Shown here: one piece after another, positions 8,888 through 14,303 of the stretch
Position numbering within the stretch: position 1 is the first letter of the stretch
Layout: every line of letters begins with the position of its first letter
Assembly: GCF_902490045.1 (NCBI RefSeq)
Contig: NZ_CABUCJ010000001.1
Span: forward strand, 1 to 59,732
Direction of reading: 5' to 3'
From: an uncultured Anaerotruncus sp.
GTDB lineage: Bacteria; Bacillota; Clostridia; Oscillospirales; Ruminococcaceae
DNA: 59,732 nt
Notes under the pieces: model-generated
The model's database searches: none
What the model was told of the DNA's origin: nothing
What the model saw: only the letters and a program-made list of their open reading frames with translations
Translations under genes and position numbers: made by a program

Positions 8888-8920
8888 CCGTTTCCGCATA
8901 CAGAATTGGTGCCATTCCTG

Positions 8921-9034
8921 TGCATGGGCTTTGGATGCAACGCGGCGGGCATCACGGGCTGCCGAATCATCGATTCGCCGCGGGAACGCCTGATCGCGAT
9001 CATCACGAACAATTTTGTTCCCTGCAACGGGCGA
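8921..9034 (+). pseudogene. feoB: Internal 38-codon fragment of a split feoB-like gene (gate region)
   Basis: [38 protein letters not shown]; continues in frame as FPTLIAII at 25150. Confidence 0.9.
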
Positions 9035-9059
9035 TTGCCCCCTCCCGGGAGATGGAAAC
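9034..9059 (+). repeat. Left attachment site (core ATT plus arm CCCCTCCCGGGAGATGGAAAC)
   Basis: Arm 9039-9059 matches the reverse complement of 25127-25147 at 18/21 positions. Confidence 0.85.
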
Positions 9060-9342
9060 AATCGCCGGTTTCAGGGCTGATATGGAGCTTTTTGACCTGG
9101 ATTTGGAGGTGGAAACGACAGTTTTGTTGCCCTGTGGTAAGAGACCCTGGGGTCACTTACCAGACATCCAAAAGGCTTTCAGTCAGACGCTACAGGATTA
9201 CCGCAGCAAAAGGCATCTTACTCAAAAACAGCTCGCTGTTCAGCTTGGCGTGGCGGAAACGACACTTCGCCTCTGGGAACAGGGAAAGACGATTCCACAT
9301 CCCTCCACCCGGTTGAGGGCGGAAAAGATGTTGAAAGAGTAA
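9052..9342 (+). CDS. XRE-family HTH protein (start 9052 or 9082)
   Basis: [27 protein letters not shown]ro/CI-type HTH. Confidence 0.7.
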
Positions 9343-9384
9343 AAGGCAGGCCGCGATTCAAAAACGAACCGCGGCCTGCCTTTT
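9341..9384. terminator. Bidirectional terminator between convergent genes
   Basis: AAAAGGCAGGCCGCG...CGCGGCCTGCCTTTT. Confidence 0.8.
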
Positions 9385-9574
9385 AGAGATTGGATGATAG
9401 AAGTTGTATGATACGTGTCAAAACCTCTGTTTTTTGCATGGGGGACAGCGCGGATTCATTCAACCTCCGCTCAATGAGTTGGAGATGGTACTGATTCGCC
9501 CGCTCCGCGATGGACTTTCCATCCGGGGAGGGAACAAAATGAATCCGTACATGCTGAATCTGGTTTCGCTTCAT
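9383..9574 (-). CDS. Small hypothetical protein (63 aa) downstream of the tyrosine recombinase
   Basis: ATG with GAGGGGG RBS; MKRNQIQHVRIHF...; co-oriented with the integrase. Confidence 0.6.
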   Translation of the reverse strand: MKRNQIQHVRIHFVPSPDGKSIAERANQYHLQLIERRLNESALSPMQKTEVLTRIIQLLSSNL

Positions 9575-9632
9575 TTTTGCCGCCCCCTCGTCACAGGGTA
9601 TGCGGGGAGCGATTTGTCCTATTCCGACGCAC

Positions 9633-10535
9633 TCAATCCCCTTCGCTTCCACCGTTAAATCGGGAGGCCAGATAGATACGCGTGACATCGTCCCTGGTGT
9701 GGCCAAGCAACTTGGACACCTTCTTGCGGGCCTCCAATTCCGTAAAGCCCTGCCGGATAAAACCGTCGTACCATTCCGCCGCGCAGGTATGCCGGAGTCC
9801 GTGAAAAGTCATGGGCCGGGTGGAACCGACTTCCTGCATTTCGGCTTTGTGATAGTTGATGAACGCTTCCAGTCGGTGAATTGCCAGATGAGTCTTGTCG
9901 TCCGGGGCGACAAACAGTTTTTGCCCGCGCGGAGTGACCTTCAGGATGTCTCTCAGCATGATTCGGATGCTGTCGTTGATCGGCACCTCCCGCACGAGCC
10001 CGCCCTTGCCTTTGACGGTGAGCATTCCTACTGTCAGTGCCTTTTCCGCGGCGGCAGTGTCAAGCCGGAAACACTCATGGATACGCAAGGCGGCGTAGCG
10101 CCCCAGGCAGAGGATGGCAATATAATCGTTGTGATCTAACTTGGATGCTCTTGCTAAAAAACGATTAAATTCCGGTGAGCCCCAGGTGCGGTCCACCCCG
10201 CCGAACCGCCGCCGCTTCAAGTCCAATACGGCGTTATTGGGCAGGGTATATTTCGCGCCCGCGATCTGGTCGTGAAAGAACCGGATGGCCGACAGTTCGG
10301 TCTTGATGTAGGCCGCCGATAATCCTTTTTCCGAAAGATGGTCCACATAGGAGAAAAGGTGCTTTGGCGCGATATTTGCCAGCTTTTCCAGCCGGTATTC
10401 CTCCGCGAGATAAGCGAGGAACCGCTTGAACGCCTCGGCATACCGGGCCTTGGTCTTGTAGCTCCCCTGCCGGTTATGGGAAGAGAGTTTATCAAATTGG
10501 GACAGCAGATTGAGATAGATGCCTTTATTCAACAT
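9633..10535 (-). CDS. Tyrosine recombinase/integrase with SAM-like N-terminal domain
   Basis: Catalytic residues intact: ALRIHE (R), KGKGG (K), HGLRH, LLGH, TRIY (Y); GGAGG RBS. Confidence 0.9.
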   Translation of the reverse strand: MLNKGIYLNLLSQFDKLSSHNRQGSYKTKARYAEAFKRFLAYLAEEYRLEKLANIAPKHLFSYVDHLSEKGLSAAYIKTELSAIRFFHDQIAGAKYTLPNNAVLDLKRRRFGGVDRTWGSPEFNRFLARASKLDHNDYIAILCLGRYAALRIHECFRLDTAAAEKALTVGMLTVKGKGGLVREVPINDSIRIMLRDILKVTPRGQKLFVAPDDKTHLAIHRLEAFINYHKAEMQEVGSTRPMTFHGLRHTCAAEWYDGFIRQGFTELEARKKVSKLLGHTRDDVTRIYLASRFNGGSEGD

Positions 10536-11120
10536 GATAATCCTCCAAATGTTCTGCCTTGGAGGCGCAGTTCGCCCACTGGAAAATGGCGGCGTTTCGA
10601 CCGTTTTTCTGTTTCAGGGAGAGAAAAGAACCCCGCCGGGGATGGTCAGCGAAAGAAGTAAAAACCGCATTCCAACCGGCTTTTGGGAGACTTCCGGCTC
10701 GATGCTTTCCTCCGAAGTCCTCCGGGATTCCAAACCGTCTCGTTTAGAAATAGATTCGTGTTCAGCAATGGATGCCGCGAAAGCCTTTTATAAAAGGCCG
10801 GAGCATACGAACTCCACGGCGAACGCGATGCCGCCATAGCGGTGCAGGCTTGCGCTCACAGGCGTTCTTCTGCCGCCGGATTGCGAAAGCAGAACACCCA
10901 CCGGCGACAGGTGTGTGGGTGTTCTGCTGCGGGAGCCTGCCAAAGCTCTCTGGACGAATTCCGTGCCTGGATCCTCCGCATCGTCCCGTGCGGGGAGGCC
11001 TGTCTGCTGTCCCGTTAGAATGCTTATCCTTTTCTCCCTCTACCCGGGCCTTTGGCCTCGGCCGGGGGACACGCGCGCAACGCGCGCGGGAGATTGTGCC
11101 AAAAGTTGCTGGCTAAACGC

Positions 11121-11161
11121 AAAAAGGCCCTGATCAATGAGTTACACACTGATCAGGGCCT
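11121..11161 (-). terminator. Intrinsic terminator inside the leader
   Basis: AGGCCCTGATCA/TGATCAGGGCCT stem followed by a U-tract on the minus strand. Confidence 0.65.
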
Positions 11162-11208
11162 GAGCTGTATTGTGGTCTGAAAACCGCAAATTCAATTGAA
11201 AACCTGTG

Positions 11209-11249
11209 AAAAAGGCACAGTACGCCCACTTGTATGGGGTACTGCGCCT
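11209..11249 (-). terminator. Promoter-proximal intrinsic terminator/attenuator
   Basis: Minus strand AGGCGCAGTAC...GTACTGTGCCT then TTTT. Confidence 0.65.
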
Positions 11250-11327
11250 AGCAACAATCCATTAACGGCGGCACCGAAGCCGCCAACTGAGGAATCCACC
11301 GAAGGATTCAAAAAACACTGTAAACAC

Positions 11328-11356
11328 AGTATATGGCATAATAATGGCATTGTCAA
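11328..11356 (-). promoter_or_regulatory. Sigma-A type promoter
   Basis: Minus strand TTGACA-N17-TATACT with an AT-rich upstream tract. Confidence 0.75.
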
Positions 11357-11567
11357 GTGATAAAATCAATATATATAAAAAAATATAATAATTTAAAAAA
11401 AATACACAATATATAGTATGCAGAAATGCAATACTTGCTTCGGCAACTAATAGCCACTGGTGGTTAACCCGCAGGCCGTCAGTATGTGACGGAAAACTCT
11501 TTCTTCATCTCACGGATTTAAGTTTTTGACGAGTCCAACGACTGCTCCGCTGAGTTGCCGTAAGCCG

Positions 11568-12260
11568 TCAGCTTTCCATAACCTCAAGCACACCTGAAAA
11601 ATCTTCCGTCTGCCCGGAAATCACTTCAAGCCCGGTTTCCACAATACCCAAAGGCACCAGTTCGTCTGAGTGCCTGAAATCGCCGTAGAAGATCGTAAAA
11701 TTCCCCCACGGGCGATAGATCACCATTTCTCCGGTAATCGGATCGTATCCGGGCTGCTCCTCGCCGATGGAGAGCGGCTCATCTGGGGTTTGCGCGGGCT
11801 TTTCAATCCCTGACAAGTCATAGAATGACAGGTCAGTCATGGGAAGGCGCTCCAGAAAGGCGTCGACCGCAGTGTTGTCATACATTGCAATGACGACCTC
11901 CTCTGTGCCGTTTACAGTCAGCTTCAACTTGACGCCGCTGAATGTGGGGGCGCTTCCGTCAGGGTATGTCCCCGTGCTGGTTACTTGAGTTGCTTGATCA
12001 GGAGCGGAAGTCTGGCTGGGGGCATCTTCATCCGGTACTTCAGAGGAGATGTCCAAAGGCACTTTTCCATCATCTTCTGCTGCTTCGGAAGAGATGTCCA
12101 AAAGCACATCCCCATCATCTTCTGCTGCTTCGGAAGATAGGACTGAGGAGGTATTGGCTCCATCATTCCCGACAGGCTTTGAATTGTTGCTGGAAGAACA
12201 CGCTGTGAAAACAATGGAGACGCAAACCAGCATTGTGATCAGCAATAAATATTTTTTCAT
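11568..12260 (-). CDS. Lipoprotein with C-terminal cyclophilin-like fold
   Basis: Lipobox FTAC; C-terminal FLERLP..EK..GEMVIYRPWGNFTIFYGDF..LVPLG. Confidence 0.75.
   Translation of the reverse strand: MKKYLLLITMLVCVSIVFTACSSSNNSKPVGNDGANTSSVLSSEAAEDDGDVLLDISSEAAEDDGKVPLDISSEVPDEDAPSQTSAPDQATQVTSTGTYPDGSAPTFSGVKLKLTVNGTEEVVIAMYDNTAVDAFLERLPMTDLSFYDLSGIEKPAQTPDEPLSIGEEQPGYDPITGEMVIYRPWGNFTIFYGDFRHSDELVPLGIVETGLEVISGQTEDFSGVLEVMES
12046..12135. repeat. 45-bp in-frame tandem repeat (SSEAAEDDGxVxLDI)
   Basis: GAGATGTCCAAA at 12046 and 12091; period 45. Confidence 0.85.
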
Positions 12261-12369: not shown

Positions 12370-12728
12370 TCAAGAGACTAATTCCAACTCACCAAGCCAC
12401 TTTTCTACTTCCGGCTGTGCTGCCGCGACTTCTCTCATGGGTATATGCAGCCCATTTTTTATGACATTCGCATCGGGCAGCAATTCCTGAATGGATGCGA
12501 TCGTGTTGGAAAACCCGCTGCTGGCGCTTGTCGCAAAGGGGATGACCGTCTTGCCGGAAAAGTCATATGCCTCCAAAAAACTGTATACGGGCATCGGCAT
12601 ATCGTACCACCAGTTGGGAAATCCAAAGATTGTGCTATGGAAGAGTCCTCCATTCGAGTCTGACCGGAACAAGCTGCCGTCAGTAAAAGCGTCAGGCATG
12701 ACAAACAAGCGAAAATCGTTCTTTTCAT
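12370..12728 (-). pseudogene. Internally deleted flavodoxin lipoprotein
   Basis: Signal/lipobox MKRTIFACL..TAAC is out of frame with the flavodoxin C-half GFPNWWYDMPMP..DFSGKTVIPF; N-half missing. Confidence 0.7.
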
Positions 12729-12757
12729 ACGTTGATCCTTTCAGATGCGCAAAAGCA

Positions 12758-13612
12758 TTAAGATAAATGGAGTTCAGCAAGCCACGCTTGAACGGCGGGC
12801 CGCGCGGAGTCAACCTCTGGACGGTACACGCCGATGACGTTGTCGATCACGGTGCAGTCCTCCGGCAGCGCCGCGGTAATATCCTGCACACTGCTGGCAA
12901 GCCCTCCCGTGCCGTGGGTGCAAAACAGGACGATGGTTTTCCCAGAAAGATCGTTCTCTTCGATAAAGCTCAAAATCGCCATAGGACAGCTGTACCACCA
13001 GTTGGGATAGCCGATGAACACGGTGTCGTAGTCGTCGATGTTCTCCACGCGGTGCGTAAGTTTTGGCCGGGCGTTTGCCGCCTTTTCATCGGCGGCCCGG
13101 TCCAGACATTCGTCGTAATCGCTGGAGTATGGCTCGGTCACGACAATCGAAAATAGATCCCCGCCGATTTCCTGCTGAATCCAGCCCGCCAGTTTTGCGG
13201 CGTTGCCGGGGAGCAGAACACTTGCGGACGCAGTGGCGTCCACATCGATTGAAGCAGGGTCCTCCACTTGGGTATTTTCCGCCCAGGTAAAGTAGGCGAT
13301 CAGCGTCTTGCCGTCGGGCTGCTCCTGCTCAGTGGGCAAATCCGGGATGGAGCTTTCAGAAGGAGCTGGGGCAGCTTCTGCGGAAGGAGTGGAAGCTGCG
13401 CTTTCGGACTGCTGGCTGGCGGCGTCCGACGGCGCGGAAACGGCGCTTTGCGGGGATGAAGACACGACCGCTGCTTCCGATGATGATTGGGGCGCGGCGC
13501 TCTCCGACCCTGAGGATTGCGCTGGAATCGACGGTTTAGACGTCTGATTTCCGCACGCGGTAAGACAAATCAGCGTGCTCAGGCAAATCAGAATTGCGGC
13601 AGCTTTTTTCAT
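12758..13612 (-). CDS. Flavodoxin lipoprotein with Ser/Ala/Pro-rich linker
   Basis: Lipobox LTAC; LIAYFTW, GYPNWW, FCTHGTGG. Confidence 0.85.
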   Translation of the reverse strand: MKKAAAILICLSTLICLTACGNQTSKPSIPAQSSGSESAAPQSSSEAAVVSSSPQSAVSAPSDAASQQSESAASTPSAEAAPAPSESSIPDLPTEQEQPDGKTLIAYFTWAENTQVEDPASIDVDATASASVLLPGNAAKLAGWIQQEIGGDLFSIVVTEPYSSDYDECLDRAADEKAANARPKLTHRVENIDDYDTVFIGYPNWWYSCPMAILSFIEENDLSGKTIVLFCTHGTGGLASSVQDITAALPEDCTVIDNVIGVYRPEVDSARPAVQAWLAELHLS

Positions 13613-14303
13613 GTGGCACCTCCTTGGGATGATTGGCCAGCTTTTTGCAGGCCTTGGAAAGTACGTGTCCGAGAAAGACGAAAAGCCCCATGATCGAGAG
13701 GTAATCGAGATAAAACAGGAGCTTCGGTTCCTCAAAGTCCATGAACACAAATTCGTTTTGCAGCAGCATATAAGACGGCAAATCCCGCTGGAAGAGCGCA
13801 TACAGGCCGTAGACCGCGATGACCAAACCGGCAAAAAAAAGAGAGGATGATGCCGCCTTCGACGGCTTCGCCTGGCCGAAGCGTTTTTTCGCCATGCCGA
13901 GGAACATACCCCAGTGCAGCCCCAGATGCAGGCTCAACAACGCATAGCCCCAATAGGCGCCAAGGATGTGGAGCCGCCGCGCCAGCATCATGCCTCCGTC
14001 GATGGGGAGGAACGCGAACACATGGCGGCTCATGACGATGCCGCTATACATTTGCGTCAGCATGGCGGCCAGCACAAGCAGATTGACGCTGACTGTCAGG
14101 ACACGCATCGGCGTGTAGCGGCCCTTAAAGAGGTTTCTATACCAACCGAAGTTCAGAAGGTTGTGCGCGAAAAACAGCGCGAACATACCCGCGCCTACCC
14201 ATTCGTGCGCCGCCTGCCCGAAGAATTGATAGCCCATCAGAACGAGCAGCGCCAGCGTCATGGCGGCGTCTAGGACCATCTTTACGATAGCTTTTGTTTT
14301 CAA
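13536..14303 (-). CDS. DUF4405-type cytochrome b-like membrane protein
   Basis: Several TM helices with His motifs HEWVG, FAHN, LHILG, LHLGLHW. Confidence 0.7.
   Translation of the reverse strand: MKTKAIVKMVLDAAMTLALLVLMGYQFFGQAAHEWVGAGMFALFFAHNLLNFGWYRNLFKGRYTPMRVLTVSVNLLVLAAMLTQMYSGIVMSRHVFAFLPIDGGMMLARRLHILGAYWGYALLSLHLGLHWGMFLGMAKKRFGQAKPSKAASSSLFFAGLVIAVYGLYALFQRDLPSYMLLQNEFVFMDFEEPKLLFYLDYLSIMGLFVFLGHVLSKACKKLANHPKEVPHEKSCRNSDLPEHADLSYRVRKSDV

Follow-up and report, generated by a model that had tools for sequence, protein, structure and literature searches.

The locus and its surroundings

The window, that is, the whole stretch of 59,732 nucleotides of an uncultured Anaerotruncus sp. 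analyzed here, carries on its minus strand a gene for a 300-aa protein of the tyrosine recombinase fold. A gene-free gap (10536-11567) separates this gene from a cyclophilin-like gene that ends at 11568. The part of the gap next to the gene had been described, from the sequence alone, as about 600 nt of non-coding, structured DNA or RNA located 5' of a recombinase gene, and the non-coding character is borne out: none of the nine stop-to-stop frames (68-120 aa) in 10519-11133 has a Pfam match at E<=1. The fold energy of the 630 nt, which was to be compared with shuffled controls, gives MFE z-scores of -3.57 for the minus strand and -3.89 for the plus strand, and none of 20 shuffles folds as well. 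The stretch could instead be the remains of a decayed gene, or GC-rich by chance and functionless, in keeping with the gene fragments located just past the recombinase-like gene and with the high GC content that gives many open frames; given that 0/9 frames match Pfam and that the stretch can be aligned, with compensatory changes, across loci of only 55-69% protein identity, the chance of this is negligible, and a decayed gene in 10536-11165 is rejected on the Pfam result.

The gene fragments in question are a piece of FeoB (positions 361-401 of 594) and a piece of an XRE-type HTH protein, at 8918-9040 and about 9180-9330 (plus strand), respectively, within the 790 nt that follow the recombinase-like gene; they are debris of earlier rearrangements. 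A palindrome with a 20-bp stem (9340-9385; 95% complementary, 6-nt loop) flanked by runs of A and T is likely to be a two-way terminator after the gene. On the other side of the gap, two overlapping minus-strand frames of 147 aa and 358 aa (12370-13834) match parts of Flavodoxin_4 (73-152 and 11-130) and may represent a frameshifted or split flavodoxin-domain gene. The Rfam scan of the whole window at gathering scores reported only a pemK RNA (RF02913; 58096-58193, minus strand; 56.9 bits), far from the stretch, and the tRNA scan of the window returned none. In a DNA search of 40 related genomes, 10536-11165 was unmatched, and the small-RNA part of the gap alone was matched, in three genomes. 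The contigs of DNA runs X1, X5, X6 and X7, an assembly form that drops rare variants, contain no joint in 9000-12000; in the same four runs, contigs break at the hairpins at a depth of 4-10, which proves nothing. None of the sequencing runs listed for the locus is an RNA run.

The features of the locus, all on the minus strand, are listed below in the order of their coordinates. A6 denotes an alignment of nine leaders from the clade of the window; top fractions (of the most common residue) and gap fractions are from an alignment of 59 loci.

9633-10535, minus: 300-aa tyrosine-recombinase-like gene, candidate MOB_M-type (MpsA/TcpM-like) relaxase (Pfam, hhalign)
10541-10564, minus: Shine-Dalgarno sequence GGAGG (10542-10546) within a CCUCCAA/UUGGAGG hairpin (MFE fold)
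10561-10608, minus: conserved 3' block, GAAAC-loop hairpin (10590-10603) and GGGCGAACUGCGCC (10564-10577)
10620-10654, minus: terminator-like hairpin with U-rich tail, window-specific (gap fraction 0.4-0.8)
10729-10751, minus: conserved block UUUCUAAACGAGACGG (GAGAC invariant in A6; top fraction about 0.63-0.65)
10760-10888, minus: putative divergent xerDC core, including the palindrome 10783-10798 as its last hairpin
10888-10928, minus: perfect 14-bp hairpin (inverted-repeat search)
10930-10950, minus: hairpin with conserved loop UUUGGCAG (5-8 bp stems of differing sequence)
10952-10998, minus: hairpin 10973-10998 and UCGUCC (10952-10957), candidate pseudoknot with the loop GGACGA (10981-10986)
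11043-11088, minus: two 5' hairpins, a GC hairpin (11072-11088) and a GCCAA-loop hairpin (11043-11066), in the clade of the window only
11120-11161, minus: intrinsic-terminator-like hairpin (15 bp) with U-run, opening the conserved block
11209-11356, minus: small RNA gene with two hairpins and its own terminator (about 11249-11209)

The structure proposed in the sequence-only reading consisted of long-range helices that nest local hairpins. The local hairpins are real and conserved: the perfect 14-bp hairpin (10888-10901/10915-10928) was recovered by the inverted-repeat search, the MFE folds contain the hairpin 10973-10998, and both are conserved elements; the perfect 16-bp palindrome 10783-10798, confirmed by direct reading of the sequence, is the last hairpin of the xerDC motif described below. 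The long-range scaffold, in contrast, is without support, although its complementarity is present in the window. Thus, 10616-10628/11029-11041 is complementary over 13 nt (85%), but 10616-10628 pairs with 11029-11039 in only 47.5/42.4% of the cells of A6; 10667-10676/11014-11023 forms 10 bp with one G-U on the minus strand but is paired in only 51.4/35.7% of the cells; and 10844-10855/10929-10940 is complementary over 12 nt (83%), but 10844-10850 with 10934-10940 is paired in only 30.4%. Controls slid along the same alignment give 37-48%, and the last two hairpins of the motif 90.7% and 98.1%. The 3' arm of the helix 10616-10628/11029-11039 lies inside an insertion peculiar to the window, with a gap fraction of 0.80 across 59 loci.

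A divergent xerDC motif upstream of the gene

At permissive settings, the Rfam scan yielded a weak match to the xerDC motif (RF03062) at 10760-10898 of the minus strand, with 16.3 bits (E 3.9-8), far below the gathering score of 72.5 bits. We collected the homologs of the 300-aa protein (1878 matches, many at about 60% identity, which bear names like 'site-specific integrase' in Oscillibacter and Harryflintia) and fetched 80 genome and 23 metagenome loci. Rfam was run on 37 of the loci, and nine of these have bona fide xerDC, above the gathering score, 177-340 nt upstream of the homologous gene (L111, 133.6 bits; L089, 99.9; L081, 96.8; L078, 94.8; L088, 91.9; L085, 85.7; L092, 77.1; L105, 76.2; L082, 74.7). 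Below the threshold, the series continues through L106 (71.4 bits) and L016 (42.1 bits), the closest genome relative with 69% protein identity, down to the 16.3 bits of the window.

A covariance model built from 10 members (R1) was run on 97 homologous loci and matches about 58 of them, in every case 5' of the gene and in its orientation. A second model (R2), built from 50 R1-matched loci with the window left out, scores 31.6 bits on the window (E 5.1e-5, filters off), where it is the sole match under E 0.5; the runner-up in the 59.7 kb has 12.1 bits. With E<=1e-3, R2 further identified 13 loci of the window's clade among the 17 relatives searched, and so picked up every clade relative that Rfam had missed. 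Whole-genome scans with Rfam xerDC, and with R2 on the genome of the window and on 120 genomes of the family, gave no match; they scored only 29-150 of about 1450 candidates and overlooked the copy in the window, and are therefore uninformative. The element is therefore dedicated to the recombinase-like gene, as had been supposed, and, judging from the graded Rfam series and the R2 score, the core at 10760-10888 (minus strand) can be assigned to the Rfam family xerDC as a divergent member, so that the earlier statement that no named RNA family could be assigned no longer holds.

The core helices covary strongly across the homologous loci, as the sequence-only reading had proposed to examine. 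In the 50 loci, 93.8% of the cells are paired, compared with 66.3% in shuffles and 31-47% in slid controls, and compensatory changes occur in 30 of the 34 core pairs; the alignment is model-fitted, which favours the pairing figures. In the window, non-pairs in the R2 alignment are confined to the first hairpin and one inner hairpin, and the other helices pair. The 3' tail reads UUGCUGAAC in the window, UACUGACC in xerDC members and UGCUCAAC or UACUCAAC in the clade relatives. The spacer between core and start codon measures 153-309 nt (median 193; 66 loci), and 224 nt in the window. The core thus shares with xerDC the helix order as well as the position and strand before the same family of genes for recombinase-like proteins of about 300 aa, and, besides the score and the 3' tail, it differs from xerDC in its extent and its first hairpin: the conserved region spans about 600 nt in the window as opposed to the 126 nt of the motif, and the first hairpin was probably replaced by the elongated 14-bp hairpin (10888-10928), followed by an insert of about 25 nt.

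On the sense strand, G-U outnumbers A-C 87:40 in the model-fitted alignment and about 17:13, by our own count, in a MAFFT alignment of 10 loci, so that the strand asymmetry is ambiguous. The nested helices of the core, because they covary, argue for a single-stranded form. This bears on the idea that the inverted repeats are DNA recombination sites for the adjacent recombinase, such as an invertible switch or a dif/lox-like resolution site. The genes for XerS and Cre are located beside their own sites, and in the window a pair of 13-nt inverted repeats lies 400 bp apart beside a gene of the tyrosine recombinase fold; given that this pair is not conserved in A6 and that the covarying, nested long-range helices of the core fit single-strand folding better than duplex half-sites, we consider recombination sites highly improbable.

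The xerDC motif originates from a survey of 224 motifs (PMC5737381, in part), the main text of which contains 'xer' 0 times and gives no function for xerDC; Rfam types RF03062 as Cis-reg.

Conserved elements around the core

In the 59-locus alignment, conservation extends from the terminator-like hairpin (11161-11120), the U-run region of which has a top fraction of 0.65, to the start codon, and is strongest in 10608-10559 and 10748-10729. The 3' block (10561-10608) has a top-residue fraction of about 0.7, and a GAAAYG anchor with this block is found in 37 of 66 loci. The block UAAACGAGACGG (10734-10746 of the window, minus strand) resembles UAAACAGAGACGG at about 1133-1147 of locus L119, where it forms one arm of an 11-bp inverted repeat at the place where the oriT of the island SGI1 should lie; chance may account for the resemblance.

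The elements located 5' of the core follow a common pattern in A6, with stems that vary between relatives and loops that are kept; the basis for this is a set of MFE folds computed independently, together with the alignment as read by eye. The 14-bp hairpin has counterparts with other stem sequences in L098, L101 and L017 (MFE folds) and in L100 and L117 (by hand). The TGGCA-loop hairpin is present in the window, L100, L101, L117, L017 and L103 and in about 12 loci of other subfamilies; the 5' domain of the leader is subfamily-specific because this hairpin is missing from 33 of 66 loci. In the candidate pseudoknot, loop and partner change together within A6 (GACGAU/AUCGUC, GACGAC/GUCGUC, GCGAUG/CAUCGC). 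Near the gene, the CCUCC...GGAGG pairing that would sequester the Shine-Dalgarno sequence was found by eye in L100, L101 and L117 and is missing in L098 and L017, so that the window and three other clade members, that is, 4 of 9 leaders, possess it.

Several other candidates were discarded or yielded nothing above chance. A terminator in the spacer is not conserved (8/66 loci, compared with 20/66 on the reverse complement), which eliminates a terminator as the expression platform of the leader. When L035, L016 and L101 were scanned for promoters, only weak 9/12 matches turned up near the core, at about the chance rate. RNAalifold on a broad 38-locus alignment recovered the core alone, with the flanks misaligned, and a column scan for covarying helices in A6 gave mostly spurious pairs. 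A pairing of GGC..UCCC (10941-10930) with GGG..GCC (10577-10564) suggested by RNAalifold was rejected because compensatory changes are nearly absent from it and a local hairpin with good support competes with it.

Upstream of the leader lies the small RNA gene, with a promoter (TTGACA-17-TATACT, 11356-11328) that matches the consensus in 11 of 12 positions and an RNA of about 110 nt with two covarying UUCG-type hairpins, for which Rfam gives no match at E<=10. The three related genomes, out of 40, that contain this RNA, one of them twice, carry it beside conjugative-element-like genes; 5' of the recombinase-like gene, it is found only in the window (and in L102, an identical metagenome copy), L101, L117, L100 and L017. 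Over 14 nt, the leader block 10563-10576 shows 86% complementarity to the 5' arm of the terminator of this RNA. In L101, a second TTGACA-17-TATACT promoter, with a terminator about 180 nt further on (2125-2345), delineates a further small transcript, placed 3' of the small RNA and 5' of the leader.

The 300-aa protein as a candidate relaxase

Pfam identifies in the 300-aa protein the standard two domains, Phage_integrase and a SAM-like N-terminal domain (residues 13-89). The R-K-H-R-H-Y set is invariant in 18 homologs, including Y288, which aligns with the C-terminal tyrosine (Y319) of MpsA, a tyrosine-recombinase-like protein of Salmonella genomic island 1 (SGI1) put forward as an atypical relaxase. 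We recognized the MpsA ORF by its 321 aa, by Y319 and by the 99-aa ORF located after it, as given in the part of PMC6414798 used here. Comparison of the family profile (A2) with hhalign gives a probability of 98.5 for MpsA (E 1.7e-15, 250 columns) and 82.4 for TcpM of pCW3 (E 1e-5), a modest similarity; the controls score 38.1 (the XerD-like protein encoded in the genome of the window) and 18.4 (a neighbouring integrase). By this profile comparison, the relaxase MpsA is by far a closer match to the protein than are the Xer protein and the integrase, and the designation of its gene as a recombinase gene, from which the sequence-only reading had started, does not fit well. Pfam Integrase_1 (PF12835) is passed by MpsA and by a 45%-identical homolog from a Bacillus plasmid, and matches weakly in 3 of the 18 family members. 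According to the 2026 preprint, in part, the cut-off of the CONJscan profile for MOB_M is 84 bits.

On these similarities, the protein is most likely a MOB_M-type conjugative relaxase of the MpsA/TcpM/MobK kind and not a site-specific recombinase. It is possible that it is a true recombinase, because the catalytic set is complete, a core-binding-like domain is fused to it, and the NCBIfam XerC model matches it end to end (67.5 bits). Indeed, the SAM-like N-terminal domain (13-89) sets the window protein apart from MobK, TcpM and MpsA, which the part of PMC8152469 used here describes as lacking an arm-binding or core-binding domain. A PDB search by sequence gave 0 matches, and the search by profile gave XerA (4a8e, E 4.9e-5) and IntI4 (7e-4); an integron is rejected, as a cassette array is lacking and MpsA is the nearer relative. 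A protein search of 17 genomes of the genus found no homolog at E<=1e-40.

Genomic context of the module

Among the homologous loci, 79 extend at least 1500 nt downstream of the gene, and 75 of these have an integrase gene there, nearly always on the same strand. Over all 102 loci, the downstream gene, mostly 70-540 nt away, is a phage-type tyrosine integrase of about 400 aa in 57 and a large serine recombinase of about 560 aa in 27. The module thus occupies the end of integrated elements at which the integrase is encoded, with either type of integrase. Genes for tRNAs often follow, and in L016, L017 and L098 a small excisionase-like gene, recognized by eye, is located between the two genes. 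In the window, the flanks consist of metabolic genes, with no integrase within 5 kb of the gene and no excisionase or conjugation genes nearby, so that the module is stranded there, without an integrase of its own.

The module is also found on plasmids. A 13-kb Brevibacillus plasmid without an integrase carries it, with a weak motif 217 nt upstream (18.7 bits, E 0.03). On small Bacillales plasmids typed 'non-mobilizable', homologs of the gene are preceded by 0.85-1.5 kb without a listed gene (L128, 4105-5636; L129, 6116-6961); these plasmids may be mobilizable by an MpsA-like type of relaxase.

According to the 2026 preprint, in part, chromosomes are rich in MOB_M relaxases; these frequently carry the annotation of an integrase, and 96% of them are located near one.

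Comparison with known mobilization systems

The oriT lies in the non-coding region before the gene for all three relaxases of this kind that have been studied (PMC6414798, PMC8152469 and the 2026 preprint, each in part). In SGI1, the oriT is formed by a 125-bp GC-rich array of inverted repeats located 304-428 bp before mpsA (PMC6414798, in part). As far as the text of PMC9299015 used here goes, mobilization of SGI1 needs a self-encoded RNA of 650-700 nt that starts at a strong promoter, with a terminator-like repeat close behind it, and extends across oriT up to a point shortly before mpsA. The window resembles this arrangement in the homologous tyrosine-recombinase-like protein, in a GC-rich hairpin array of about 125 nt that precedes the gene by a few hundred nt, in a strong promoter with a terminator-like hairpin after it, and in the residence of the module, among the relatives, in an integrative element with its own integrase. 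The order in the window is the promoter (11356-11328), the small RNA with its terminator, a second terminator, the structured 600 nt and the gene. The differences from SGI1 are the host phylum and the requirement of MpsA for a separate small protein, MpsB, where the window protein has a fused core-binding-like domain.

TcpM of the Clostridium perfringens plasmid pCW3 likewise is a relaxase of the tyrosine recombinase fold in an element of Clostridia, with three consecutive hairpins in the 150 nt before its gene and a C-terminal motif around the tyrosine in common with the window protein; it differs in the hhalign probability of only 82%, in its length of 266 aa and in its location on a conjugative plasmid beside the transfer genes of the latter. 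In pIGRK, MobK is a relaxase-like tyrosine recombinase with the oriT in the 456-bp intergenic region before mobK (PMC8152469, in part), and small plasmids also carry homologs of the window protein; MobK, here likened to the window protein by its description in the same part of PMC8152469, has no core-binding domain. Comparable orphan structured motifs, STAXI and EFASI, precede small tyrosine-recombinase-like genes in mobile islands, and a role as single-stranded DNA has been raised by the authors for STAXI (PMC2864571). These are other motifs, in proteobacterial islands with 'XerDC-type' integrases and in other phyla, and neither was matched in the Rfam scans of the window.

The non-coding regions of the window family and of SGI1 and pCW3 appear to be analogous only, without detectable sequence similarity, because R2 finds nothing at E<=1 in front of mpsA, tcpM or the homologous gene of the Bacillus plasmid; Rfam gave 0 matches on the SGI1-like record.

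The RNA of SGI1 also is an argument for a trans-acting RNA that would be bound by the recombinase as a partner or guide and direct the choice of its DNA target, in the manner of bridge or seek RNAs, and so is the presence of a large structured, RNA-like element always beside the gene of the enzyme. Such a guide is very improbable given that the protein has no domain beyond the standard two, that an unsystematic look noticed no variable loops matching the flanking DNA, and that most loci lack a terminator that would close a discrete RNA before the gene; for the guide proposed in the sequence-only reading, the analysis brought nothing in support.

A proposed control region of a mobilization module

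By analogy with these systems, we propose that the 600-nt stretch is the cis-acting control region of a MOB_M-type mobilization module, comprising an oriT and/or a long structured leader RNA, a reading to which we assign a probability of roughly one half. The hairpin array, together with the conserved unpaired 3' tail, would hold the oriT that is bound and nicked by the relaxase, as in SGI1, pCW3 and pIGRK. The whole region would also be transcribed as a long structured leader, comparable to the sgm primary transcript of SGI1; in the clade of the window, this leader would start at the strong promoter, with terminators after it, and might set the amount of relaxase made, with the ribosome-binding site sequestered. 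For the core itself, action as RNA is plausible, if a little short of an even chance, and action as DNA, that is, as oriT, is a more tentative proposition, part of the weight allowing for both. Of the roles suggested at the outset, the regulatory leader and the origin both stay live readings.

A purely cis-regulatory 5'-UTR RNA that controls translation of, or read-through into, the gene of a true site-specific recombinase, and binds either a small ligand or a protein, which could be the recombinase, is a possible but less likely alternative. It would account for the constant strand and fixed spacing to the start codon, for the multi-branch fold with covariation and the excess of sense-strand G-U over A-C in the model-fitted alignment (A5), and for conservation that reaches the ribosome-binding site, in front of which 4 of the 9 clade members can form an anti-SD hairpin; the full catalytic set and core-binding domain of the protein, and the Rfam class, agree with it as well. 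It does not account for a protein that resembles MpsA far more than it does a Xer protein or integrase, nor for such a gene in elements that already own an integrase; furthermore, a spacer terminator occurs in 8 of 66 loci, below the 20 of 66 on the reverse complement, and no ligand or partner is indicated.

The reading as a mobilization control region suggests a wider one, which we regard as speculative: the tyrosine-recombinase-like relaxases of gut Clostridia would form a very large family that has been overlooked, with the xerDC motif as its mobilization element, and the transcript of the motif would be an sgm-type RNA cofactor required by the relaxase for processing of the embedded oriT. 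xerDC itself is known as an orphan motif; a literature search of titles and abstract openings, supplements of PMC5737381 aside, found no link between xerDC and a relaxase or oriT, which suggests that the relaxase link is new. xerDC is among the many catalogued bacterial RNA motifs without a known function, and the link to a gene family closer to MpsA than to recombinases gives it a concrete, testable role, as an origin of transfer and/or a mobilization RNA. If the wider reading is true, RNA-assisted relaxosomes would be common to MOB_M systems, from Salmonella islands to Oscillospiraceae. The analysis also suggests that many of the 'site-specific integrase' genes of Oscillospiraceae encode relaxases of mobilizable islands; if so, estimates of the amount of DNA in the gut microbiota that can be moved by conjugation would change.
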